This document shows positions 7,340 to 32,566 of a stretch of DNA of 64,000 bases, piece by piece. Below the pieces are notes generated by a model. That model made no database searches, was not told the DNA's origin, and saw only the letters and a program-made list of their open reading frames with translations. A program made the translations under genes and the position numbers. The stretch spans positions 39 to 64,038 of the forward strand of contig CAJUQS010000087.1 of the NCBI GenBank assembly GCA_910588365.1, in the 5' to 3' direction. This DNA is from an uncultured Oscillospiraceae bacterium (GTDB lineage Bacteria > Bacillota > Clostridia > Oscillospirales > Oscillospiraceae). Within the stretch, counting starts at the first letter, position 1. Every line of letters starts with the position of its first letter.

Positions 7340-7930
7340 ATTGGGGCTTCCAGCCCCACACCCCAGGTACCTTTTCCCCCGCAGGAAAAGGTACCAAAAG
7401 TGCGCCGGGGGAGGGCCCCCGGTCCCCCGGCATCGCCCTCCGGGCGATACTCCATTCTTTGTTTAGTTGCCCTTTGCTGTAGCTGGGCTGATTCTACCGA
7501 TGGTGCTTACCCTTCGTCTGCCGGACTTCTGCGTCTACCCGCGGGTCCTAACGATAGGCGAAGCAGCGGGGGAGTGCGGCGCAAGTTTACTGCGCAGCGA
7601 TTCGGAGGATCCCCTTTGCAGGCTCTGTCCCTTTAAGAGGCCGGCAGGCGGAGTTGGTTGACCGCCAGACCACTAGATCAGAACCCCGAAGGAAACTTTC
7701 GTTCACGGGGCACCGCAATTCTTCGCTTGCAGGTGTGTCCGAAAAACCCCCGGTTATTTTGGGGGACCGGGGGATACCCCCGGCGCATTTTTGGTTGCTT
7801 TTTGTGCGTACAAAAAGTAACCGCGGGGTGTGGGGGCGCGAAGCCCCCACTTGTCTCGCGTCATTCGGCAGAGCCGAACGACCGCTCGGGCGGTGCAAGC
7901 ACCGCCTTGGACCGCGTAGGCCCCACCCGT
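7340..7930. repeat. Mosaic of family-2 GC-rich repeat modules (ORF-free)
   Basis: Hairpin GGTACCTTTTCC..GGAAAAGGTACC (7366-7395) and an inverted partner GGTTGCTTTTTGTGCGTACAAAAAGTAACC (7793-7822). Each is flanked by GGGGC..GCCCC hairpins. Module 7857-7906 recurs at 24.47-24.58 and 25.16-25.21 kb. 7695-7750 matches the reverse complement of 24335-24400. Confidence 0.8.
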
Positions 7931-19262: not shown

Positions 19263-19330
19263 GGCATACATACTTTTTCTTGAAAGAAAAAGTATCAAAA
19301 AGAACTTTTAGGACAAAACGGTGTTTTGCC
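19263..19330 (-). repeat. Family-1 bipartite hairpin repeat, copy B
   Basis: GGCATAC + long hairpin ATACTTTTTCTTGAAAGAAAAAGTAT (19270-19295) + CAAAAAGAACTTTTAG + short hairpin (19312-19329). Inverted relative to copy C. Confidence 0.85.
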
Positions 19331-19958
19331 CGATATGTTTTATTTCCTCATCGAAATTCTGGTAGAAGGCGGCGATGTGCAGGCCGTCCACCAAAGCGTG
19401 GTTGCACAGGATGGACACCGGCAGCAGGACCCTGCCCCCCTGGGGGAAGTATTTCCCGAAGGTGATCCGGGGATTGCTGTCCGCCGGACTGGGCACCGGC
19501 TGGACCAGGGCCGTATAGCTGAGCCAGGGCAAGGACGAGACAAAAAATTTGTCCAGGACCTCCTCCGGGTCCTCCTTAATGCTGGCCCGGCGTTTGGCCG
19601 CCTCCTGGGCCTCCCTCCCCGCCGCCAGATAGCCGCCAAACTCCGGCTCATTCTCCAGCGTGCAGTAGCAGAAGGTCCCGTCCTCCAGCGCCACCGTATG
19701 GGAGGCCCGGCACTGGTCAAATTCGATGATGCCGCCGTCCACAATCCGCTGGCGCAGCTCCGGCACGGCGTTGGCCGAGCGGACCGCGCACCAGCATACG
19801 GCGAGGAAAAACGGCAGCCTCTCCGCCTTAACCCTGCCCAGCAGCTCCGTGATGTCAACATTGGCCGTAGTCCCCACATAGGGGTAGGCCATGGAGCTGA
19901 AATAGGCGAAGTGGTCCCGCCTCTTGTAGGATTCCATCTCAACGGTCTTGTATCCCAT
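19308..19958 (-). CDS. CatA-like (chloramphenicol acetyltransferase fold) O-acetyltransferase
   Basis: CAT-type catalytic region LCNHALVDGLHIAAFYQ. 216 aa. The last codons lie inside repeat copy B. Confidence 0.8.
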   Translation of the reverse strand: MGYKTVEMESYKRRDHFAYFSSMAYPYVGTTANVDITELLGRVKAERLPFFLAVCWCAVRSANAVPELRQRIVDGGIIEFDQCRASHTVALEDGTFCYCTLENEPEFGGYLAAGREAQEAAKRRASIKEDPEEVLDKFFVSSLPWLSYTALVQPVPSPADSNPRITFGKYFPQGGRVLLPVSILCNHALVDGLHIAAFYQNFDEEIKHIGQNTVLS

Positions 19959-19973
19959 ATTTTCCTCCCAAAA

Positions 19974-20050
19974 GCAAAGCGTAAGCTTTGCGCAAAAGGT
20001 TTTTCTTTTTGATACTTTTTCTTTGTTCACAAAGAAAAAGTATGTATGCC
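19974..20050 (+). repeat. Family-1 bipartite hairpin repeat, copy C
   Basis: Short hairpin GCAAAGCGTAAGCTTTGC (19974-19991), linker, long hairpin (20012-20043), GTATGCC. The flank CTCCCAAAAGCAAA is shared with copy D. Confidence 0.85.
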
Positions 20051-20811
20051 TAGATCTCCGCCGCCAGCTCCAGTGCCAGCTGGGCGATCTTGTCCTTCTC
20101 CGTCAGATCGTGCTCGCTGCCCAGGCCCCGCCGGTCCCAGGCCCCGCCGTCCAGGCTGTCCGCCCCGTGGAAGAACTGGAACACGTCCTTCCCCCGGAAC
20201 CGGGCCAAGGCCGCTACCGCTGCGCACTCCATATCCACACAGATGCACCCCTGATCCCGCCGCCGGGCCGCTTTCTCCGCCGTCTCCCGGTAGAACGCGT
20301 CGGTGGTCCACACCCTGCCCTCCACGCAGGAGCAGCCGTGGCGGGCCAGAATCCGGCCGAACTCCTCCCGGTACTTGGGGTTCACCTCGATCACGTCCCC
20401 CGGCGGCGCGTAGTGGAAGCTGGTCCCCTCGTCCCGCAGGGCGGAGGTGGGGACGATGATGCCGCAGTTGGCGATGTCCTTGTCCAGCACCCCGCAGGAC
20501 CCGAACAGCACCACCTTCTCCACGCCGAAGAAAAACAGGTCTTCCAGCCCCCCCACGCAGAACGGCGCGCCGACGCAGGCCGGAAAGAGGGCGAGCTCCC
20601 GGCCCCGGTACGCCGCCCGGTAGATGGGCATCTCCATCGCGGCGCAGCTGACCTGGCCGATCTCCACCGCGCCCAGCCGCTCCACCATCCGCCGGAAGGT
20701 GTGCCGCTCAAAGCAGGACACCGCCGTCTTTGGGCAGTCCGGTATGGGCTGATAGACGTCCGATGGGTTGATCACAGCCACCGGATTGGGATCAAATTCG
20801 TGAAGCAGCAT
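20050..20811 (-). CDS. Nucleoside phosphorylase (PNP/UDP family)
   Basis: Family-like regions (FGSCGVLD, ALRDEGTSFHY, VDMECAA). ATG MLLHEFD chosen. Confidence 0.75.
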   Translation of the reverse strand: MLLHEFDPNPVAVINPSDVYQPIPDCPKTAVSCFERHTFRRMVERLGAVEIGQVSCAAMEMPIYRAAYRGRELALFPACVGAPFCVGGLEDLFFFGVEKVVLFGSCGVLDKDIANCGIIVPTSALRDEGTSFHYAPPGDVIEVNPKYREEFGRILARHGCSCVEGRVWTTDAFYRETAEKAARRRDQGCICVDMECAAVAALARFRGKDVFQFFHGADSLDGGAWDRRGLGSEHDLTEKDKIAQLALELAAEI

Positions 20812-20840
20812 GGAATATCCCTCCTCTGTTTCGCAGCCAC

Positions 20841-21581
20841 CTAGCAGGTGCATTCATACAAGAGCATTTCAGGCTGATCGAGGGATACCGGCTTCTTGTC
20901 AAAGGAGGCATAGACCTGAACCTCCGTGAATCCGGCCTCTCTCAGCATCAGCTCCATCTCTCCCGGCTTATAGAGATGGGTCTGGAAATCCATTGTCTCC
21001 CGCTGGAGCAGTTCCCCGTCCCGGTACAGCTCGTAAATACCGGGTGAAAACTGGGTACGCGATGCCGCGTCATAGGTGTGCCTTGTCTTTAAAACCAGCG
21101 TCTCCCCCGCCGCCGTCCACACGGAGGCCGTCTCCTCATAGTCCTCGCTGTCCGCACACCGGTCCGCCATGGTTTCAGCCGCAAAGACAAATTTCCCGCC
21201 CTTCTTCAGCATGGCCCGCACCTTTGCCAGAATCCGCCCGCACACCTCCAAATCGGTAAAGAGCGAGATGGATCCAGAGGAGATAAAAATATAGTCAAAG
21301 GGCTCCTCCGGCTCATAGCCGGTCATATCCGAGCGCACCACCGGCGCGCCGGGCCGCTTGCGCCGGAGCTTTTCCAGCATCTCCTCCGACAGGTCCATGC
21401 CCTGGATGTCGTATCCCCTCTCGAGAAACGGAATCAGGAATCTCCCGCTTCCGCAGAGCGGCTCCAGAATCCGCTCGCCAGCTCTGGCGTATGAGAGGTA
21501 GAAATCCAGCTCCTCCTGAGGCGCGTCCTTGTGCAGGATCTCATACAGCTCTGTACACAGACTGCCGTAATAATTTTTCAT
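20841..21581 (-). CDS. Class I SAM-dependent methyltransferase
   Basis: Motif I ILEPLCGSGRF and D-loop GMDLSEEM. ATG MKNYYGS preceded by GGGAGGG. Confidence 0.8.
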   Translation of the reverse strand: MKNYYGSLCTELYEILHKDAPQEELDFYLSYARAGERILEPLCGSGRFLIPFLERGYDIQGMDLSEEMLEKLRRKRPGAPVVRSDMTGYEPEEPFDYIFISSGSISLFTDLEVCGRILAKVRAMLKKGGKFVFAAETMADRCADSEDYEETASVWTAAGETLVLKTRHTYDAASRTQFSPGIYELYRDGELLQRETMDFQTHLYKPGEMELMLREAGFTEVQVYASFDKKPVSLDQPEMLLYECTC

Positions 21582-21596
21582 CCTGCCCTCCCAAAA

Positions 21597-21655
21597 GCAA
21601 AACGAAGTTTTGCGCAAAAGTTCTTTTTGATTCTTTTTCTTTCAAGAAAAAGAAT
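21597..21655 (+). repeat. Family-1 bipartite hairpin repeat, copy D
   Basis: GCAAAACGAAGTTTTGC (21597-21613) + GCAAAAGTTCTTTTTG + ATTCTTTTTCTTTCAAGAAAAAGAAT (21630-21655). The dxs stop codon lies in the hairpin loop. Confidence 0.9.
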
Positions 21656-23471
21656 GGACAACCCCCTCCGCGTCCAGTCCCAGCAGCCGTCTCAGCTGGG
21701 GCACCGTGCCCTGGGGGGCGAAAGCATCCTTCAGATTCTTCAAAACCAGCGTTTCCGGCGCGATTCCCGCCATCGCCAGCTCCGAGGCCAGCCGCTGGCC
21801 CACGGACCCGTTCTCAAAGCAGTCCTCCAGCACCAGCAGCCGCCCGGTCCGCCGCACAGACGCCAGCACGGACGCCGCGTCCAGGGGCGCGATCCGGTGG
21901 AGCTTGACGACCTCCGCCTGCACCCCCCTCTCCGCCAGCAGATCCGCCGCCTTGAGCAGCTCGTCCGTCAGCGTCCCGTAGGACACCAGCGTGGCGTCCG
22001 CCCCCTGCCGCAGCACGGACGCGTCCTCCCCGGTCCAGGCCGGGTACTGCCGTCCCTCGCCGCCCCGGGGATACCGGATCGCCACCGGGCCCTCCATGTC
22101 CAGGGCCGCGCGCAGCATGGCCCGCAGCTCGTCAAAGCAGGCAGGGCACAGCACGCTCAGGCCCGGGATCTGGCTGAGGTACCCCACGTCCTGGCATCCG
22201 TGGTGGGTGGGCCCGTCGGAGCCCACCAGCCCCGCCCGGTCCACCGCCAGCACCACATGGAGACGCTGCAAGGCCACATCGTGTATGAGCATGTCGAACC
22301 CCCGCTGCAGGAAGCTGGAGTACACCGCCAGCACAGGGATCATCCCCTGCCTGGCCATGCCCGCCGCCATGGCCACCGCGTGGCCCTCGGCGATGCCCAC
22401 GTCAAAAAACCGCTTGGGCCAGGCGGAGGAAAACTCCTGGAGCCCCGTGCCCTCGGCCATGGCGGCGGTGACGGCGCAGATGCGCCGGTCCCGGCCCGCC
22501 AGCTCCACCAGCTCGTGGCCGAACACATAGGAAAAATCCACCTTCTGCTCGCAGACAATTCCCACCGCCGGGTCAAAGGGGCTGACACCGTGACTGCGCT
22601 CGGGCTGGCTCTCGGCGGAGGCGTAGCCCTTGCCCTTGGTGGTGCGCACATGGAGCAGTACCGGGCAGTTCAGCTCCCGGGCCCAGGCCAGGGTGGTACA
22701 CAATTGGTCCAGGTTGTGGCCGTCCACCGGCCCCAGGTAGGTGAAGCCCATGTCCTCGAACATGGAGCAGGGGTAGATGGCCCGCTTCACGTTCCGCTTG
22801 ATGCGGTGGTTGAAGTCATAGACCCGCTTCCCGCCGGGCAGGCGGTTCATCACCGCGTGGTATCCCTTCTTGAACCGGTAGTACCCCGGCCTGAGCCGCA
22901 GGCGGCTGAGGTGGGTGGCCACGCCCCCCACGTTGGGGTCGATGGACATGCCGTTGTCGTTGAGGATGACCACCAGGGGCTCTCCCGAGGCCCCCGCGTC
23001 GTTGAGCCCCTCGTAGGCCAGCCCCCCGGTGAGGGCCCCGTCGCCGATGAGGGCCGCCACGGCGTAGTCCGCCCCCGCCAGGGTCCGGGCCCGGGCCATG
23101 CCCAGGGCGACGGACACGGAGTTGGAGGCGTGGCCCGCCACGAAGGCGTCGTGGACGCTCTCCTCCGGCTTCGGAAAGCCGGAGAGCCCTCCCAGCTGAC
23201 GCAGGGAGCCAAAGAGCTCCCTGCGGCCGGTGAGGGCTTTGTGGACGTAGCACTGGTGGCCTACATCGAACACCAGCCGGTCCCGGGCGGTGTCGTAGGT
23301 GCGGTGGAGCGCCACCGTCAGCTCCACCGCACCCAGGTTGGAGGCCAGGTGCCCGCCGGTGCGGGACACGCTCTCCACCAGGAAGCGGCGCAGCTCCCCG
23401 CACAGCAGCTCCAGCTCCCCGCCGTTCAGCCGCTTCACGTCCGCCGGGGATGCGATACGTTCTAAAATCAA
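21642..23471 (-). CDS. dxs: 1-deoxy-D-xylulose-5-phosphate synthase
   Basis: TPP-binding motifs (GDGALTGG, HASNSVS region). 609 aa. TTG start 7 nt after GAGAGGTG. Confidence 0.95.
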   Translation of the reverse strand: MILERIASPADVKRLNGGELELLCGELRRFLVESVSRTGGHLASNLGAVELTVALHRTYDTARDRLVFDVGHQCYVHKALTGRRELFGSLRQLGGLSGFPKPEESVHDAFVAGHASNSVSVALGMARARTLAGADYAVAALIGDGALTGGLAYEGLNDAGASGEPLVVILNDNGMSIDPNVGGVATHLSRLRLRPGYYRFKKGYHAVMNRLPGGKRVYDFNHRIKRNVKRAIYPCSMFEDMGFTYLGPVDGHNLDQLCTTLAWARELNCPVLLHVRTTKGKGYASAESQPERSHGVSPFDPAVGIVCEQKVDFSYVFGHELVELAGRDRRICAVTAAMAEGTGLQEFSSAWPKRFFDVGIAEGHAVAMAAGMARQGMIPVLAVYSSFLQRGFDMLIHDVALQRLHVVLAVDRAGLVGSDGPTHHGCQDVGYLSQIPGLSVLCPACFDELRAMLRAALDMEGPVAIRYPRGGEGRQYPAWTGEDASVLRQGADATLVSYGTLTDELLKAADLLAERGVQAEVVKLHRIAPLDAASVLASVRRTGRLLVLEDCFENGSVGQRLASELAMAGIAPETLVLKNLKDAFAPQGTVPQLRRLLGLDAEGVVHSFS

Positions 23472-23557: not shown

Positions 23558-24157
23558 TCACTTCCGCCGTGAGAACAGGTGGAGGACCCGGCCCACCAGC
23601 TGGAGGACGGCGGTGCTCTTTTCAATGGCGAAGGTTTTGCCCACGGCCTTGCCGCCGATGGTCAGGCCGGAGACCAGGGCCGTGATGGCCAGGGAGATCA
23701 CCACGGAGCGGAGGGAAAACGCCTCCTGGAGCCGGGTGACGATGATGGCGGCGGTGGAGCCGGAGATGATGCCGCAGATGTCGCCCACCACGTCGTTGCA
23801 GAAGCTGGAAACCTTGCTGGCCTTCCGGATGAGGCCCAGGGCCTCCCGGGCGCCGGGGGTCTTATGGGCGGCCATGGAGTGGAAGGGCCGCTCGTCGGCG
23901 GCGGTGACCGACACGCCGATGATATCGAACAGAATGCCCAGGCCGATGAAGCAGGCCAGCACCGCGAAGGCCAGGGGGATGCCCGCCCCGCTCAGCGCCT
24001 GATCCGACGCCAGGCTCAGCACGGCGGAGAGTACCACGGAGATGAAAAATACCTGGATCGCCCAGCGGAATCTTCCTTCCTTTTTCCCCTTGTCGTCCTT
24101 CTTCTTTTTCTCGGGCTTCTTCTTTGTTGTTTGACTGCTGCTGTCTCCTGTGTCCAA
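23558..24157 (-). CDS. Four-TM membrane protein, candidate OLE-associated protein OapA
   Basis: Lys-rich N-terminus, then 4 predicted helices and a DVVGD (DxxxD) motif. Directly upstream of dxs. No internal ATG; TTG at 24157 lies 8 nt after AGGAG. The OapA identity is inferred from position and topology only. Confidence 0.5.
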   Translation of the reverse strand: MDTGDSSSQTTKKKPEKKKKDDKGKKEGRFRWAIQVFFISVVLSAVLSLASDQALSGAGIPLAFAVLACFIGLGILFDIIGVSVTAADERPFHSMAAHKTPGAREALGLIRKASKVSSFCNDVVGDICGIISGSTAAIIVTRLQEAFSLRSVVISLAITALVSGLTIGGKAVGKTFAIEKSTAVLQLVGRVLHLFSRRK

Positions 24158-24239
24158 GAGAGGATCTCCTCGCTTTCCAAAATCTAATTTACTTTTTTCT
24201 TCTGCCGCGCTCCGCGCGGGGGAGGTTGGTTCTAATCGG

Positions 24240-24585
24240 GGCCCCGGGTTTACGCAGCCCGGACCCGCGGTTACTTTTTGTGCAAACAAAAAGTAACCAA
24301 AAAGTTGCCAGAACCCATGGTTCTGGACTCCTTTGCTTTACGGGGGCTGTCGGACACGCTTCGCAGGTGAAGAGCTGCGGTGCCCCGTGAACGGGCCCCG
24401 TCTTTTGGCGCTCCATACCGGGCTCGGGGCGTCCATTACTGCCGCCCGGCTCGACAAGGTGACGCTTGCGTCACCCGAACGGTCGTTGGGCGGTACGCCC
24501 AATGACGTGAGCGCTTGCACCACCCGATCCGTCGTTCGGCTCTGCCGAATGACGCGAGCCGGGCGCTTGCACCACCCATGCTGTC
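24240..24585 (-). repeat. Left arm of a long inverted repeat (family-2 modules)
   Basis: Contains hairpin GGTTACTTTTTGTGCAAACAAAAAGTAACC (24269-24298). 24472-24511 is the exact reverse complement of 25164-25203. Confidence 0.85.
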
Positions 24586-24795
24586 CTAGGGCTCGTCGCT
24601 CCTGCCGATCAGATAGTCCACGGATACCTCAAATACATCCGCCATCTTCCACAGCACCGTCGCGGTTGGTTCCCTCTCCCCAGATTCATACCGCCGGTAG
24701 GTCGTAAGGCCGATCTCGCACAGCTCCGCCATTTTTTCTTGTCTCAGTCCCCTGCTTTTCCGCAAGGTCCTCAGTCTTTCTTTCAATAATAACAT
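24586..24795 (-). CDS. XRE family HTH transcriptional regulator (69 aa)
   Basis: MLLLKERLRTLRKSRGLRQEKMAELCEIGLTTYRRYESGEREPT... Internal ATG chosen. Confidence 0.8.
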   Translation of the reverse strand: MLLLKERLRTLRKSRGLRQEKMAELCEIGLTTYRRYESGEREPTATVLWKMADVFEVSVDYLIGRSDEP

Positions 24796-24811
24796 TTTTC
24801 CCCAATTATAC

Positions 24812-24862
24812 TTGACAACCCCGTTCGGGGCGATTATAATAAAAACAATCCCAAACGGGGTT
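24812..24862 (+). promoter_or_regulatory. Consensus sigma-A promoter with palindromic operator candidates
   Basis: TTGACA (24812-24817), 17-nt spacer, TATAAT (24835-24840). The spacer holds the palindrome CCCCGTTCGGGG, and a related CCCAAACGGGG lies downstream. Confidence 0.65.
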
Positions 24863-24884
24863 AGTTTTTCGGGAGGTCGCACGA

Positions 24885-25142
24885 ATGGATGAACTGATCT
24901 ATGCCATGTTTGAGTATGCGGAGCGGAGCCGGATGCCGCTGTATCTTGCGAAGGGCGGACGGAATAAAAAGAGCGACGCGGCGTTGGAGATAGAGGCGAG
25001 TAATCTGCGTGAAACGCTGTCCGGCGATGGAAAGGAGCAGCTGGATGAGCTGCTGTTGGATCTGTTCCAGGCCCAGGATGCACGGCTTGAGGCCATGTTC
25101 CTGGCCGGCTTTTCGTTAGGCCAGGAATTTTCCCGGCTGTAA
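24885..25142 (+). CDS. Hypothetical small protein, divergent from the XRE gene
   Basis: 85-aa ORF behind the consensus promoter with SD GGGAGG. No family recognised. Confidence 0.55.
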   Translation: MDELIYAMFEYAERSRMPLYLAKGGRNKKSDAALEIEASNLRETLSGDGKEQLDELLLDLFQAQDARLEAMFLAGFSLGQEFSRL

Positions 25143-25159
25143 CGCCTCTTTGCAAACAC

Positions 25160-25468
25160 CTGTCTCACGTCATTGGGCGTACCGCCCAACGACCGTTCGG
25201 GTGGTGCAAGCACCCCACCTTGTCGAGCCGGGCGGCAGCAACGGAAGCTCCGCGCCCGGTATGGAGCAAAAAGAATCTCATTCGGAGGCTGGGCAGCACT
25301 TCATCCGCACAGCAGGCCGGAGATCCCTCGCCGAGGCGGCTCGCCGGACAGCGCCTGCGCTGTCTGGCGGCCCCGAGCGGGGTCCAGGGGCGCCCCCTGG
25401 CGCGCTTTTGGTTACTTTTCCCGCGAAGGAAAAGTAACCGCGGGGCGTGGGGCTGCGTAAGCCCCACC
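25160..25468 (+). repeat. Right arm of the long inverted repeat (family-2 modules)
   Basis: Contains hairpin GGTTACTTTTCCCGCGAAGGAAAAGTAACC (25410-25439) and GGGGCTGCGTAAGCCCC. Mirrors the module order of 24240-24585. Confidence 0.85.
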
Positions 25469-25542
25469 TAATAAAATCCATATAAAATCCATCTGACATA
25501 ACGGAGGCGGCCCGAGGGCCGCCAAAAAGTTGAAAAAGAAAA

Positions 25543-26195
25543 GACTAAACGCCGGCAGCAGACGAAGTAAATCTTACGGCTTAGGTACGGGCTGGATTTC
25601 CCCGGGACTCACCCCTCGTTGCCGATCGGGCGGTTTCCCTTTCAGCGCCCCGGCGCGGCGTTGCCCACCGCGCTGCCCGACTGCCACTTAGTCCGCACTG
25701 CAATCCCTCGTCTGCCCAGTGACGACAGCCTAGGTGTTTTCCACCACAGTCAAACCGCTTCTTAGCCTCTTTTGCAGACATGGTTTCAAGGAGCAATCAC
25801 AGCCGCCCCCTGGCCAGGGGACAAGCTGAGTGTTCTCCTATTCGCCATGTCCACGCAAGGCAGGCTACATCTGCACACAGCGTTCACGGCTCAAGGCCGG
25901 GTAGCACCGCAATGCAGGTTTCTACCCTGAGTCGTACACGGGTCGAAGTGCCGCAAAGGGAGTACGCCCATGCACAAGAACAGGTCTCCACGGAAGCAGG
26001 GTCGGCCTCCCCATGCCATTGGGGAACGCCCTGAATCCGCAAGCGCGGGGAGTCCGCGCTTCCCTCCCAGCACCCACCCCAAACTGGGCGTAAGAAGCAG
26101 GCACCAGGGGTTTCACAGCTATGCCCTTTAAAGGATTTTTAGGCCCTTCTTCGGAAGCGGCAGATCTGACTAGGATACTGCGCCGTCGTTTAGCG
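25543..26195 (-). ncRNA. Large structured non-coding RNA (~650 nt), candidate OLE-class RNA
   Basis: No credible ORF. Own promoter. The 5' end (26194-26178) pairs with the 3' end (25561-25544). Lies in the OLE/oapA gene neighbourhood. Not aligned to a covariance model. Confidence 0.55.
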
Positions 26196-26200
26196 GATAC

Positions 26201-26229
26201 AGTATACCACGTCTTCTCTGGATATTCAA
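26201..26229 (-). promoter_or_regulatory. Sigma-A promoter of the large RNA
   Basis: Minus strand TTGAAT (26229-26224), 17-nt spacer, extended -10 TGgTATACT (26206-26201). Confidence 0.65.
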
Positions 26230-26484
26230 GGGGATTATGCAAAATTTTTGTATATTAACAGATTATTCACATAGGCCGGGCTCCGCTGGCGGCAAATTTA
26301 TAGCAAGCTTCAGAATTCATGACAAAAAAGCCCTCTGCAAGAGTTTGCCGCCCGCAGGCGGCAAATAAAATCAAATCGTTTTTCCCGCGGCGTGTACGTG
26401 GGAAAAACACTTCGTGGGGAGCGAGCGTCGAATTGTGCGCCAAAGGCGCACAACCGAGGCGCAGAGCGAAACGAATCCCTTCTC

Positions 26485-26550
26485 AAAAAAGTGGCAGCGC
26501 CACTTTTTTGACACGCAGAGGAGGCGGGGGCAAACGCCCCCGCCTCCTCT
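26485..26550 (-). terminator. Tandem hairpins terminating the phosphodiesterase gene (second one bidirectional)
   Basis: 14-bp stem AGAGGAGGCGGGGG / CCCCCGCCTCCTCT (26517-26550), then A6-GTGGCAGCGCCAC-T6 (26485-26510). Confidence 0.65.
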
Positions 26551-26556
26551 GAATCC

Positions 26557-28395
26557 CTATCCGATTGATGGCGGCGGGCAGCCCTCGCCCTGCCACACGT
26601 ACTCCGCCTGCGGGTGGCTGTCCCGGTAGGCCGAGAGCACGGACGCGATCTCCCCCGGGTAGTCGGTGATGATGCCGCTGACACCCATCTCCAGGTACTG
26701 GCGCATCCGCTCCCCGTCGTATACGCTCCACACGTACACCGGCAGGCCCAGCTCCCGGGCCCGGTCCGTCAGGCGGTTGCTGACCAGGTTCTCCTCCACG
26801 GCCAGGAAGTCCATGTCATAGCGCCAGATCGCATCGTCGATGTCCCCCGCCGCCCCGTAGGCGCAGAAGCCCACCCACCAATCCGGGTGCTCGTCCATGA
26901 TGGACAGCAGGCAGGGGTAGTCCAGGGACATGAACATGGCCCGGCCGCCGAAATCCCAGCGCTCCACCACATCCATCACCGCCCGGGACAACGCCGCCCC
27001 GTTCCGGGCGGCGGGCTTGAGCTCGATGAGCAGGCCCATCCCATCCGGATCCTCCGACAGGGCGGCGACAACCTCCTCCAGGGAGGAGATCCGCTCCCCG
27101 GCCTCCGGCCAGCGGAGATCCGCGATGGGGACGCTCTGCAGCTCCGCCCAGGTCAGCTCCCCGACGCTCCCCTCCCGGCCGGCCATCCGGCGCAGGTTCC
27201 CGTCGTGGAACAGCACCGGAACCCCGTCCGCCGTCAGCTGCACATCAATCTCCGCGTAGTCCATCCCCGCCGCCTGGGCCGCCAGGATGGCGGTCAGGGT
27301 GTTCTCCACGCCGCCCTCGCCGCCCCGGTGAGCAATGGCAAAGGGCCGGTGGAGCAGCAGCGGGTGGGTCAGTGTGGCCAGCAGGCCCGCCGCCAGCACC
27401 AGACACACCGCCGCGCCCCCCAGCTGCCAGCCCCTGCGGCGCAGGCGATCCCTCCACCGGATTTTCCATGACGCCCAGCGGCGGTCCAGAATTTCCAGCA
27501 AAAGCGCACCGTCTCCGCCCCCGGCGGGCGCAGGAACGGGCAGGCCCGCCCGCTCCGCCCCGGAAACCAGCACCCAGATGAGGCATCCCATGCCGGCCGT
27601 TGTCAGAACGGCCATCAGCAGCCAGTAGAGCAGATCCTTCCGGAATGCCTCGCCGTAGATGAGGAGCTTGAGAAAGTTCCCGTCAAAGTCCTCGTTCCCC
27701 AGGAGGACCCGCCGCCAGTACCGGCTGATCTCCGTGGCCGTCCGCTCCCAGGCCGCCAGGATGCACGGAACACCCAGGCGGTGACGCCAGCCAGCCCGCC
27801 GCCAGCACGTCAGGCTCCCCCGGGCGGCAGCGGCGAAGCCCTCCCGCGCCAGTGCCATCCGCACCGGCACGAACAGCAGCGCCAGATGGGCCGCCCACTG
27901 TATCAGATAGACGGCCACGATACCGGCTTGTCCCAAGGTGCTCTTCCGCATCTCCTCAAAGACAAATTCCGGCACGAACACCCGGGGTACCACCGTGTTC
28001 ACGTACCCGATGCCCACCAGGGGCAGAAGCAGCACGTAGTACAGCGCCCCCGGCGCCAGGGACCTCCCCCTCAGCGCCCCCAGGCTCCACAGGGAGCGCC
28101 GCATCACCTGTCCCAGGGCGAAGGGCTCCCCCCGGCGGCAGCAGACGGTGATGTTGATGAGCACGCAGTATTCATAGAATATGAGCGCGGCCGCCGCGAG
28201 AAAAAGGAGCAGGAACAGAACCGCCTGCTTGGGGTCCAGCAGGATCCACACCAGCCCGGTATTGAACTGCAGCCCGCCGGCGGCCACCTGTGTCTGGTAG
28301 ACCTCCCGGAGCAGGGGGTTCACCAGACACAGGCAGATGAGCTTCCAGATGGCCTCGAACCGCAGTATCTCTCTCAATGCTTTTCCAAATCCCAT
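26557..28395 (-). CDS. Membrane-anchored glycerophosphodiester phosphodiesterase
   Basis: N-terminal multi-TM domain plus a C-terminal GDPD domain (FAIAHRGG...ENT...EIDVQLTADGVPVLFHD). Confidence 0.85.
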   Translation of the reverse strand: MGFGKALREILRFEAIWKLICLCLVNPLLREVYQTQVAAGGLQFNTGLVWILLDPKQAVLFLLLFLAAAALIFYEYCVLINITVCCRRGEPFALGQVMRRSLWSLGALRGRSLAPGALYYVLLLPLVGIGYVNTVVPRVFVPEFVFEEMRKSTLGQAGIVAVYLIQWAAHLALLFVPVRMALAREGFAAAARGSLTCWRRAGWRHRLGVPCILAAWERTATEISRYWRRVLLGNEDFDGNFLKLLIYGEAFRKDLLYWLLMAVLTTAGMGCLIWVLVSGAERAGLPVPAPAGGGDGALLLEILDRRWASWKIRWRDRLRRRGWQLGGAAVCLVLAAGLLATLTHPLLLHRPFAIAHRGGEGGVENTLTAILAAQAAGMDYAEIDVQLTADGVPVLFHDGNLRRMAGREGSVGELTWAELQSVPIADLRWPEAGERISSLEEVVAALSEDPDGMGLLIELKPAARNGAALSRAVMDVVERWDFGGRAMFMSLDYPCLLSIMDEHPDWWVGFCAYGAAGDIDDAIWRYDMDFLAVEENLVSNRLTDRARELGLPVYVWSVYDGERMRQYLEMGVSGIITDYPGEIASVLSAYRDSHPQAEYVWQGEGCPPPSIG

Positions 28396-29658: not shown

Positions 29659-30162
29659 ATGATTAGAAATGTCGCCAGAGAGATTGCCATGCACCTCTCC
29701 TATGAGCTCAGCTTTACCGATCTGACCGCCAGCGAGCTGCTGGACCAGCGCCTCAGCTCCCCCCACTTCGAGGCCCTGGCGCCGGAGTACGAGGTCTACG
29801 GCGAGCTGCCCAACGCCAGTCAGCGCGCTTACATCCGCAAGCTGGTCCAGGGGATTGCCGTCCACGGCTACGAGCTGGACCAGTATATCGAGAAATACGC
29901 CAAGGGCTGGCGGTTCGAGCGCATCCCTCTGGTGGCCGGGGCCGTCATGCGCCTGTGCATGTATGAAATCCTCTATATGCCCGAGATCCCCAACGGCGCC
30001 GCCATCAACGAGGCCGTGGAGATCTCCAAGAAGTATGAGAGCGCCGAGGTGGTCCGTTTCATCAACGGCATCCTGGGGTCCTTTGTCCGCGGCGAGGTCC
30101 GGGAGGAGGCCCCGCTCCCCGCTCCGCCCCCTCCCGCCGGCGGGGAAGGGGAGGACGCATAA
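29659..30162 (+). CDS. nusB: Transcription antitermination factor NusB
   Basis: NusB fold sequence (ARE.A...LY, NEAVEISKKY) with a Pro/Gly-rich C-terminal tail. Confidence 0.9.
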   Translation: MIRNVAREIAMHLSYELSFTDLTASELLDQRLSSPHFEALAPEYEVYGELPNASQRAYIRKLVQGIAVHGYELDQYIEKYAKGWRFERIPLVAGAVMRLCMYEILYMPEIPNGAAINEAVEISKKYESAEVVRFINGILGSFVRGEVREEAPLPAPPPPAGGEGEDA

Positions 30163-30222
30163 CAGGTAAAAAAGGGCGCACGCGTCGTGCGCCCTTCTCA
30201 CGTATGAAAGGACTGCGATAAC

Positions 30223-31437
30223 ATGGAGCGGCACGTATACGGCGTCACCGAGCTCAACGAACTGGTCAAGGCCGTTCTGGACAGCGTCCCGGAGTTCGGG
30301 AACGTCTGCGTCCGGGGGGAGATCTCCAACTACAAGCTCTACCCCTCCGGCCACCACTATTTCACCCTCAAGGACGCCGGCGGCGCCATCCGCTGCGTCC
30401 TTTTCAAGGGACAGGCCCTCCGCCTCCGGTTCCGGCCGGAGAACGGCATGAAGGTCCTGGCCCAGGGCCGGGTGGGCGTCTACCCCAGAGACGGCGTCTA
30501 CCAGCTCTACTGCGACGCCCTCAGTCCCGACGGGGTGGGGGATCTCCACGTGGCCTTCGAGCAGCTCAAGGAGAAGCTGTGGCGGGAGGGCCTGTTTGAT
30601 CCGGCCCGCAAGAAGCCCCTGCCCCCCTACCCCCGCACCATCGCCATCATCACCTCCCCCGCCGGGGCGGCGGTTCACGACATGATCCGCATTCTCCGCC
30701 GCCGCTACCCCCTGGCCAAGGTGAAGCTGCTGCCTGTCCGGGTCCAGGGGGCGGAGGCCCCGCCGGAGATCGCGGGGGCCCTGCGCTACGCCAACCGGCA
30801 CCGGGTGGCGGATGTCATCATCACGGGCCGGGGCGGCGGGTCCATTGAGGATCTGTGGGCCTTCAACGACGAGCGGGTGGCCCGGGCCATCTTCGACTCG
30901 GAGATCCCCGTCATCTCCGCCGTTGGCCACGAGCCCGACGTAACCATTGCCGATTTCGTGGCCGACGTCCGGGCGGCCACCCCCTCCCACGCCGCCGAGC
31001 TGGCGGTCCCCGACCAGGGGGAGCTGGCCGAGCGGATCCAGAGCCTGCGCCTGCACATGGTCCGCAGCCAGGGCAAACGGCTGGAGCTCTCCCGCCGCCG
31101 GCTGGACGCGCTGGCGGCGAAGCGGGTGCTGTCCGATCCCCTGGCGCCGGTGCAGGACAAGCGCCTGCTGCTGGACCACGTACAGAAGGAGCTGTACCAC
31201 GCCGCCATGGGCCGCCTGGCGGAGCCCAGGGCGCGCACCGCCGGACTGGCCGCGTCTCTGGACGCCATGAGCCCCCTGAAGGTGCTGGGCCGGGGCTTCG
31301 CCCTTGTGACGGACGAGGAGGGGAGGCCCCTGCGGCGGGCCTCCGGCGTACCGGCGGGAAGCCGGATCACCGCCAAATTATCCCAAGGCCGGCTGCTCTG
31401 CCGGGTCGAGGAAGCCATTGAGGAGGATGGGACATGA
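30223..31437 (+). CDS. xseA: Exodeoxyribonuclease VII large subunit
   Basis: VTELNELVKAVLDS..., OB fold plus catalytic region (ITSPAGAAVHD, GRGGGSIEDLWAFN). Confidence 0.95.
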   Translation: MERHVYGVTELNELVKAVLDSVPEFGNVCVRGEISNYKLYPSGHHYFTLKDAGGAIRCVLFKGQALRLRFRPENGMKVLAQGRVGVYPRDGVYQLYCDALSPDGVGDLHVAFEQLKEKLWREGLFDPARKKPLPPYPRTIAIITSPAGAAVHDMIRILRRRYPLAKVKLLPVRVQGAEAPPEIAGALRYANRHRVADVIITGRGGGSIEDLWAFNDERVARAIFDSEIPVISAVGHEPDVTIADFVADVRAATPSHAAELAVPDQGELAERIQSLRLHMVRSQGKRLELSRRRLDALAAKRVLSDPLAPVQDKRLLLDHVQKELYHAAMGRLAEPRARTAGLAASLDAMSPLKVLGRGFALVTDEEGRPLRRASGVPAGSRITAKLSQGRLLCRVEEAIEEDGT

Positions 31438-31676
31438 GTCCGAAAAAAAAGGAAGCCCCCAGCTTTGAGGGGAACATCGCCCGTCTGGAGGAAATCGTCG
31501 CCCTGCTGGAGCGGGGGGATACGCCTCTGGCCGGCTCCCTGGCGCTGTTTGAGGAGGGAACCAGGCTGGCCGCCGCCTGCACCGCCATGCTGGACGAGGC
31601 GGAGCAGACCGTGGTGAAGCTGCAGAAGGGCCCCGACGGCGAGCCCGTGGAGCTGCCCTTCCAGGAGGAGGCGTGA
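31434..31676 (+). CDS. xseB: Exodeoxyribonuclease VII small subunit
   Basis: SFEGNIARLEEIVALLERGDTPL. ATGA overlap with xseA. Confidence 0.9.
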   Translation: MSPKKKEAPSFEGNIARLEEIVALLERGDTPLAGSLALFEEGTRLAAACTAMLDEAEQTVVKLQKGPDGEPVELPFQEEA

Positions 31677-31678
31677 CC

Positions 31679-32566
31679 ATGGAGACATTTCAGGCCCAAT
31701 ACGATCGCTATCGGGAGATGGCGGAGGCGGCCCTGCGCCGGATGTTCGCGCAGGCCGATCCCCCCCAGGAGCGGCCCTGGCAGCGGCTCTGGGACGCCAT
31801 GGGCTACAGCGTGCTGGCCGGAGGCAAGCGGGTGCGGCCGGTGATGGCTCTGGCCGTCTGCGAGGCCCTGGGGGGCCGGGCGGAGGACGCCTTGGCGCCG
31901 GCCTGCGCCCTGGAGCTGGTCCACACCTACTCCCTCATACACGACGATCTCCCCTGCATGGACGACGACGATCTCCGCCGGGGACGGCCCACCTGCCACA
32001 AGGTCTACGGGGAGACGCTGGCCGTGCTGGCCGGGGACGCCCTGCAGGCGGAGGCCTTCCGGCTGATTGCCTGCGCGCCGGGGCTCACCGGGGAGCAGAG
32101 GGCCGAGTCGGTCCGGATTCTGGCGGAGGCCTGCGGCGGCGACGGCATGGTGGCCGGGCAGGTGCTGGACGTGGATCAGCTGGCGGGGAACGCCCAGGAG
32201 CTGCGCCAGCTGTGCGCGCTGAAGACCGGCGCCCTGCTGCGGGCGGCGGCGGAGCTGGGCTGCGCCGCCGCCGGGGCCTCCCCGGAGCAGCGGCGGCGGG
32301 CCGCGGACTACGCGGAGCACATAGGGCTGGCCTTCCAGGTCCGGGACGACATGCTGGATGTCATCGCCGACCAGTCGGAGTTCGGCAAACCCGTGGGATC
32401 GGACCGGCAGGAGGGCAAGCGCACCTTTGTGGACCTGCTGGATCTGGCGGGCTGTCAGTGGATGGTGGCGGAGGAGACCCGGCTGGCCCGGGAGGCGGCG
32501 GCCGCGCTCCCGGAGGGGGGATTTCTGCTGGCGCTGGCGGATGCTCTGGCAGACAGGAGGACGTGA
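31679..32566 (+). CDS. ispA: Farnesyl diphosphate synthase (polyprenyl synthetase)
   Basis: DDxxD motifs (LIHDDLPCMDDDDLRRG, QVRDDMLD). ATG 31679 lies 7 nt after AGGAGG. GTG 31673 is the alternative start. Confidence 0.9.
   Translation: METFQAQYDRYREMAEAALRRMFAQADPPQERPWQRLWDAMGYSVLAGGKRVRPVMALAVCEALGGRAEDALAPACALELVHTYSLIHDDLPCMDDDDLRRGRPTCHKVYGETLAVLAGDALQAEAFRLIACAPGLTGEQRAESVRILAEACGGDGMVAGQVLDVDQLAGNAQELRQLCALKTGALLRAAAELGCAAAGASPEQRRRAADYAEHIGLAFQVRDDMLDVIADQSEFGKPVGSDRQEGKRTFVDLLDLAGCQWMVAEETRLAREAAAALPEGGFLLALADALADRRT

Follow-up and report, generated by a model that had tools for sequence, protein, structure and literature searches.

A full-length OLE RNA gene in a split gene neighborhood of an uncultured Oscillospiraceae bacterium

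Between 25.5 and 26.25 kb of the window (the whole 64-kb stretch of DNA analyzed here, from an uncultured member of Oscillospiraceae), no open reading frame is longer than 106 aa, which raises the question of what this gap encodes. The initial annotation had guessed from the genomic position that it harbors an OLE RNA and had named a different or new class of large RNA as the fallback. OLE RNAs are large, highly conserved, and membrane-associated and may span the membrane.

Identity of the gap

The guess is borne out by the covariance model of OLE RNA (Rfam RF01071), which matches the minus strand from 26202 to 25536 with 413.3 bits (gathering score, 50) and an E-value of 5.7e-118. The alignment covers model positions 1-616 of 616, that is, the match is not truncated. 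The feature is:

26202..25536, minus strand: OLE RNA gene (ole), full-length type, by its match to Rfam RF01071

When the whole window was scanned against Rfam 15 at curated thresholds, OLE RNA was the sole match; the window holds no tRNA or tmRNA genes. In a second Rfam scan of the region 24100-26600 with permissive filters (E <= 1), no family other than OLE overlapped the gene, and the five other matches lie outside OLE, at chance level and all far below their cut-offs. The models of ROOL, GOLLD, HEARO, and raiA, which the initial annotation had proposed to run alongside RF01071, gave no match in the same scan. The alternative that the large structured RNA of the gap belongs to another class, be it one of these four or one not yet described, is thus refuted, and its probability is negligible: only RF01071 matches, at 413 bits and from end to end.

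Relative to the RF01071 consensus, the copy shows deletions of 1-2 nt each and three insertions of 21, 15, and 18 nt, which account for the excess of its 667 nt over the 616 positions of the consensus. The full-length OLE architecture of about 600 nt is preserved, with all stems of the model present and the P7-P9 region retained. Because only such minor deletions and the three insertions separate it from the consensus, the copy is of the full-length type and does not belong to the OLE variants 1 and 2 (TANB77, RF39), which are shortened (PMC11332333). We consider it almost certain that the region is the ole gene of a gut anaerobe of the Oscillospiraceae (Bacillota, Clostridia), encoding a full-length OLE RNA of about 650 nt. 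It represents an already known RNA class and adds no new class or principle; a standard Rfam annotation would label the gene outright, and a GTDB-wide survey has reported 2,822 OLE matches in Bacillota (PMC11332333).

A protein-coding reading of the gap would have to rely on its longest open frame, a stretch of 106 codons rich in Arg, Pro, and Gly on the minus strand (26242..25922). This frame does exist, but it begins upstream of the ole promoter and is disrupted in the 67 relatives, of which 65 carry frameshifting indels and two a stop codon. Moreover, frames as long as this one are common in DNA of this G+C content: inside the OLE genes of the relatives, the median length of stop-free stretches is 131 codons. 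The 106-aa ORF is rejected as a gene on account of the lack of conservation of its frame in the 67 relatives, leaving a vanishingly small probability for a protein product, and the original statement that the gap holds no credible ORF stands.

Promoter, terminal helix, and conserved elements of the RNA

If the gap is the ole gene, the next question is where its transcript begins and ends and which elements of the class it has kept. Conservation was assessed in alignments of 68 OLE loci from Oscillospiraceae genomes. The features at the ends of the gene are:

26201..26229, minus strand: sigma-A-type promoter of ole, by consensus scan and positional conservation in relatives
26182..26194, minus strand: 5' strand of the terminal helix, taken as P1 (GCUAAACGACGGC), by covariation, energies, and the MFE fold
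25544..25556, minus strand: 3' strand of the terminal helix, taken as P1 (GCCGGCGUUUAGU), by the same evidence
25526..25543, minus strand: U-rich tail CUUUUCUUUUUCAACUUU directly after the 3' strand of P1, read from the sequence

An independent consensus scan recovers the near-consensus sigma-A promoter that had been described as firing into the gap, with a -35 box TTGAAT (26229-26224), a 17-nt spacer, and an extended -10 box TGgTATACT (26209-26201). In the alignment, an extended -10 box and a TTGnnT -35 box occupy the same place in about 60 of the 68 loci, where the promoter ends 19-21 nt upstream of the invariant GCAGUAU. Judging from the spacing, the transcript of ole probably begins at about G26194, where the terminal helix also begins, and the mature 5' end would therefore need no processing.

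Additional motifs are found around the promoter. In many relatives, a 10-bp palindrome, TGAATATTCA, overlaps the -35 box; the version in the window, at 26219-26228, is TGAATATCCA. Just upstream of the palindrome, at about 26230-26250, lies a conserved A/T-rich box (TTTGCATAAT or TTTGTATATTC). The two elements could be an operator or an UP element. The palindrome TGAATATTCA has only one other near-match in the 64-kb window, and its half-site spacing does not fit what we take to be the ARG-box consensus.

The ends of the RNA are joined by a helix of 13 pairs (G26194-C26182 with G25556-U25544), which is interrupted by one A.G mismatch (A26186/G25552) and includes one terminal G.U pair. That the two strands are complementary had been noticed at the outset, and the covariation in relatives that was to be examined is present: 11 of the 13 pairs change on both sides in the 68-sequence alignment, and compensatory cells number 95, as opposed to 36 +/- 5 in column shuffles, none of 500 of which reach the observed value. 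Of the cells, 79% are paired, and shifting the partner strand by 1-3 columns lowers this share to 25-62%. Each RNA also binds its own 3' strand better than a foreign one (mean -19.7 vs -13.8 kcal/mol; 64 of 66 sequences), and the MFE fold of the single sequence recovers the helix with a z-score of -3.6. The boundaries first given for this helix require correction, however, as its two outer ends were each off by one and the three innermost pairs (26180-26178 with 25561-25559) do not belong to it; the Rfam model pairs 25561-25559 within a different helix, at 25567-25557.

The Rfam model leaves the terminal helix unannotated, and its consensus is complementary at this place (GUGGU ... ACCAC). The helix is taken to be the published P1, which is listed, together with P2 and P10-P15, among the substructures of OLE domain 2 (PMC12265935). 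The 3' strand is followed directly by the U-rich tail. A T-tract is present at the same place in 34 of the 68 relatives (50%), compared with 6% of random windows, and the Rfam OLE consensus likewise has a run of U after the 3' strand of P1. The U-tract may contribute to the formation of the 3' end, which is speculative.

The interior of the RNA has preserved the loops that are characteristic of the class. The alignment places in the window copy an A-rich CCUAAAAAUCC loop, GCCCAG and AAUGGCAUG loops, and a palindromic UGGCCA loop, and the motifs CCUAAAAAUCC, ACGCCCAGU, CAAUGGCAUG, and CUGGCCAG are present in it and invariant across the 68 relatives. The published dimer contacts of OLE RNA comprise an A-rich loop of P4, complementary loops of P5.1 and P6.1, and a palindromic loop of P9 (PMC12265935); roles of the loops in dimerization are also described in PMC12286853. 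Based on their order and description, the loops in the window would correspond to these contacts.

One departure from the consensus is the insertion of 21 nt, which forms a hairpin between the stems taken as P5 and P6:

26041..26061, minus strand: lineage-specific 8-bp hairpin AAGCGCGG-ACUCC-CCGCGCUU in J5/6, an insertion relative to the Rfam consensus (RF01071)

This hairpin is present in 57 of the 68 Oscillospiraceae OLE RNAs and absent from more distant ones. Its strands are paired in 96.5% of cells, and six of its eight pairs show changes on both sides. OapC binding requires a region that includes J5/6 (PMC9723947). At the k-turn near P5, the site of OapC, the flanking nucleotides of the consensus are kept, and the covarying hairpin is inserted in the adjacent J5/6. 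Lying next to the published k-turn site, the hairpin might matter for the contact with OapC.

The oapA gene and the split neighborhood

An OLE RNA gene is expected to be accompanied by oapA, and downstream on the same strand lie:

24157..23558, minus strand: oapA, 199 aa, TTG start, by OapA homology, membrane segments, and DxxxD motif
21642..23471, minus strand: dxs, by Pfam DXP_synthase_N (E 3e-110)

The 199-aa protein, which had been recorded merely as a protein with four transmembrane segments downstream of the gap, shares 40% identity over 171 residues (E 5e-38) with OapA of Clostridium acetobutylicum, for which the supplement of the OLE cryo-EM study (PMC12286853) gives the sequence. Its four hydrophobic segments lie at about residues 32-52, 57-85, 122-141, and 148-170, and its N-terminus is Lys-rich, with 11 Lys/Arg among the first 30 residues. 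The motif D122-V-V-G-D126, which is invariant in 18 homologs, aligns with NDVIGD of C. acetobutylicum OapA; the OapA mutant PM1 carries D100A/D104A, again a DxxxD spacing (PMC9723947). The protein weakly resembles CNNM/DUF21 (E 1e-3, below the cut-off), and a weak homology of OapA to this family has been reported (PMC11332333). A database protein of the same length and sequence occurs on 164 contigs. Judged by its sequence, the membrane protein is a true OapA. Among the other known partners, OapC and bS21 gave no significant tblastn match within the 64-kb window; genes for OapB and OapC would not be expected in the vicinity of ole.

The surroundings of ole contain the classical neighbors, in accordance with the gene calls from which the OLE position had originally been deduced: dxs, tlyA (S4+FtsJ), nadK, argR, and recN do follow downstream on the same strand, after oapA. 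What had been missed are three genes between dxs and tlyA, which encode a methyltransferase, a PNP/UDP-family phosphorylase, and a CAT-family acetyltransferase. Upstream of ole on the same strand are genes for a membrane GDPD phosphodiesterase and an SSB-like protein, and farther upstream, on the opposite strand, are asp23, nusB, xseA, xseB, ispA, and a DUF212 gene. Relative to the minus-strand array from ole, oapA, and dxs to recN, the nusB-xseA-xseB-ispA block (plus strand, 29659-32566) is therefore inverted; within the segment 26557-32566, the genes for the GDPD phosphodiesterase, the SSB-like protein, and Asp23 lie between this block and ole. Because of this inversion and the three intervening genes, the classical adjacency of ispA and ole is lost, and the neighborhood is present but split into two divergent halves. 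The OLE position claimed for the gap thus holds with respect to the usual neighbors, with two corrections of detail: oapA lies 1.38 kb away, and the ispA block has the opposite orientation to ole.

Strains also differ in what lies between dxs and tlyA (19308-21617). In the conspecific assemblies L082 and L084-L086, the CAT gene alone precedes tlyA; in L081, L083, L087, and L088, the methyltransferase and phosphorylase genes follow dxs, and these loci end thereafter.

The distance between ole and oapA is due to a spacer with genes of its own:

24158..25535, no strand assigned: spacer cassette of 1.38 kb between ole and oapA, by ORF, repeat, and promoter scans
24798..24586, minus strand: RstR/XRE-type HTH gene, between the inverted repeats
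24812-24840, plus strand: perfect TTGACA-17-TATAAT promoter, by consensus scan
24885-25142, plus strand: orphan ORF of 85 aa, between the inverted repeats

The HTH gene and the 85-aa ORF diverge from the TTGACA-17-TATAAT promoter and are flanked by imperfect inverted repeats of about 270 nt (24246-24511 and 25164-25464), the sub-arms of which are 75-96% complementary. Among 5.8 billion proteins, the 85-aa ORF has homologs only at identities of at least 92%, and it was found only in this species. In a blastn search against 80 related loci, the spacer gave a single match, of 61 nt. The cassette is variable between conspecific assemblies and is partly degraded in L083; it has the same orientation in all eight of them, with no inversion seen. 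The idea that the spacer is a shared mobile or invertible element finds no support in either the 80-locus search or the eight assemblies.

A palindromic element, GGTTACTTTTT...AAAAAGTAACC, recurs in intergenic DNA at 24269-24298, 25410-25439, and 7793-7822. Its 10-mer has 12 matches with at most one mismatch, where 1.1 are expected. The element looks like a REP-like or terminator hairpin family.

The spacer bears on two alternative explanations of the gene. In the first, the RNA acts in cis rather than in trans and controls the downstream oapA-dxs operon as a leader or riboswitch-like element. Its same-strand location ahead of oapA and dxs and the U-tract after P1 agree with such a role, but 1.38 kb with an opposite-strand ORF and hairpins intervene before oapA, no riboswitch family matches, and the class is known to act as a ribonucleoprotein particle (PMC12265935, PMC9723947), which renders a leader function extremely unlikely. 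Owing to the 1.38-kb spacer with its opposite-strand ORF and terminator-like hairpins, co-transcription of ole and oapA as in Halalkalibacterium halodurans is likewise doubtful; a consensus scan recognized no promoter of oapA.

In the second explanation, the gene is a decaying, non-functional relic, cut off from oapA by the inserted cassette. The 1.38 kb of unrelated sequence between ole and oapA and the unrecognized oapA promoter would be compatible with decay, but the OLE model is matched over its full length and without large deletions. Decay is also at odds with the conserved promoter and P1, the latter with compensatory changes. A segment-wise comparison covered six conspecific metagenome assemblies that contain the complete ole-oapA region, which is collinear in all of them. 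In five of the six, no segment of the locus is better conserved than OLE, at 99.9% identity (95.8% in L083), whereas the left spacer repeat has only 78-85% and carries indels; oapA is intact and 98.3-99.0% identical. The better conservation of OLE relative to the spacer repeat fits purifying selection on the RNA.

Comparison with other species provides the remaining argument. An OapA profile scan of the GTDB representative genomes yielded 80 loci, none of them outside the Oscillospiraceae and allies, with 88% identity for the best; the closest are all from genomes of Oscillospiraceae, Oscillibacter, Dysosmobacter, or Pelethomonas. The species in the window itself has been seen only in metagenome assemblies. 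In 73 of the 80 loci, a search with the window OLE (nhmmer) found an OLE RNA that precedes oapA in the same orientation. Three of the seven loci without a match have almost no upstream flank; L004, L021, L022, and L060 have no OLE within 4 kb upstream of oapA. Several related species too have a gene between ole and oapA, which further speaks against the gene in the window being a relic, and we regard decay as very unlikely.

Ten of these related species have 2.4-2.8 kb between ole and oapA (L006, L007, L012, L013, L015, L018, L019, L020, L037, and L069; e.g., L037:1552-3891 and L007:1302-3944). The two gaps that were inspected (L037 and L007) contain a gene on the same strand whose product, of 780-880 aa, has an N-terminus resembling a signal peptide or lipobox and is probably a lipoprotein.

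Nothing like the cassette of the window occurs at the same site in other species. The presence of different inserts at the ole-oapA junction across species shows that the junction tolerates insertions and is repeatedly interrupted in this clade.

Proposed working and comparison with known systems

How the OLE RNA in the window would work can be proposed from the published OLE RNAs of H. halodurans and Clostridium, for which the protein partners, the location at the membrane, and roles under stress have been described (PMC12265935, PMC9723947, PMC11332333). By homology, the RNA would dimerize via its conserved loops and would bind a dimer of the four-helix membrane protein OapA together with OapB, OapC, and bS21. 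The resulting particle would be retained at the cell membrane or possibly extend across it (in a recent structural model of OLE, the P3 stems are proposed to cross the bilayer), and it would aid growth under stress from alcohol, cold, an excess of Mg2+, or poor carbon sources.

Beyond this, the OLE RNA of the lineage might be transcribed as a self-contained unit instead of being excised from a polycistronic transcript, starting at P1, with P1 and the U-tract acting as a terminator that spans the whole RNA, with ole uncoupled from oapA, and with an OapC contact that the J5/6 hairpin might have altered or replaced. We consider this a tentative and rather unlikely extension. The value of the locus is comparative: it represents a clade of gut Oscillospiraceae of high G+C content with its own conserved ole promoter, a repeatedly broken linkage of ole and oapA, and an extra hairpin at the junction that binds OapC. 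Such natural variants could help to define which features of the OLE particle are dispensable.

ROOL, GOLLD, HEARO, and the raiA motif resemble the RNA of the window in being large, highly structured non-coding RNAs whose biochemical function is known at most in part, but they match it neither in sequence nor in structure, occur in other gene contexts, and have no OapA partner. On the protein side, the weak, sub-threshold CNNM similarity is shared with the Mg2+ transport proteins of the CNNM/DUF21 type (MpfA family). By contrast, these possess CBS and CorC domains; the 199-aa protein of the window lacks both, comprises no more than four hydrophobic segments, and clusters with OapA.

The shortened OLE variants are of the same RNA class and likewise stem from uncultured Clostridia-like hosts in the gut. 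Their P7-P9 region is reduced or absent and the OapB site on P13 is often missing, whereas the copy in the window is free of large deletions.

The closest counterparts are the characterized OLE RNAs (H. halodurans; C. acetobutylicum and C. botulinum, with partial cryo-EM). Differences concern the length of 667 nt with three insertions, including the J5/6 hairpin, the G+C content of 59% found here, and the organization of the locus. In characterized loci, oapA is adjacent to ole; in the window, the two share a strand but are 1.38 kb apart, with oapA downstream, and the nusB-ispA block has the opposite orientation to ole. The ole cluster of H. halodurans is reported to be transcribed as one polycistronic transcript (PMC12265935), whereas ole in the window has its own conserved promoter, which ends 6-8 nt upstream of P1. 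Shared with the characterized systems are the match over the full model and the terminal helix, the conserved loops and junctions, all of which are retained, the neighboring genes dxs, tlyA, nadK, argR, recN, and ispA-xseAB-nusB, and a host that is an anaerobic member of the Bacillota.
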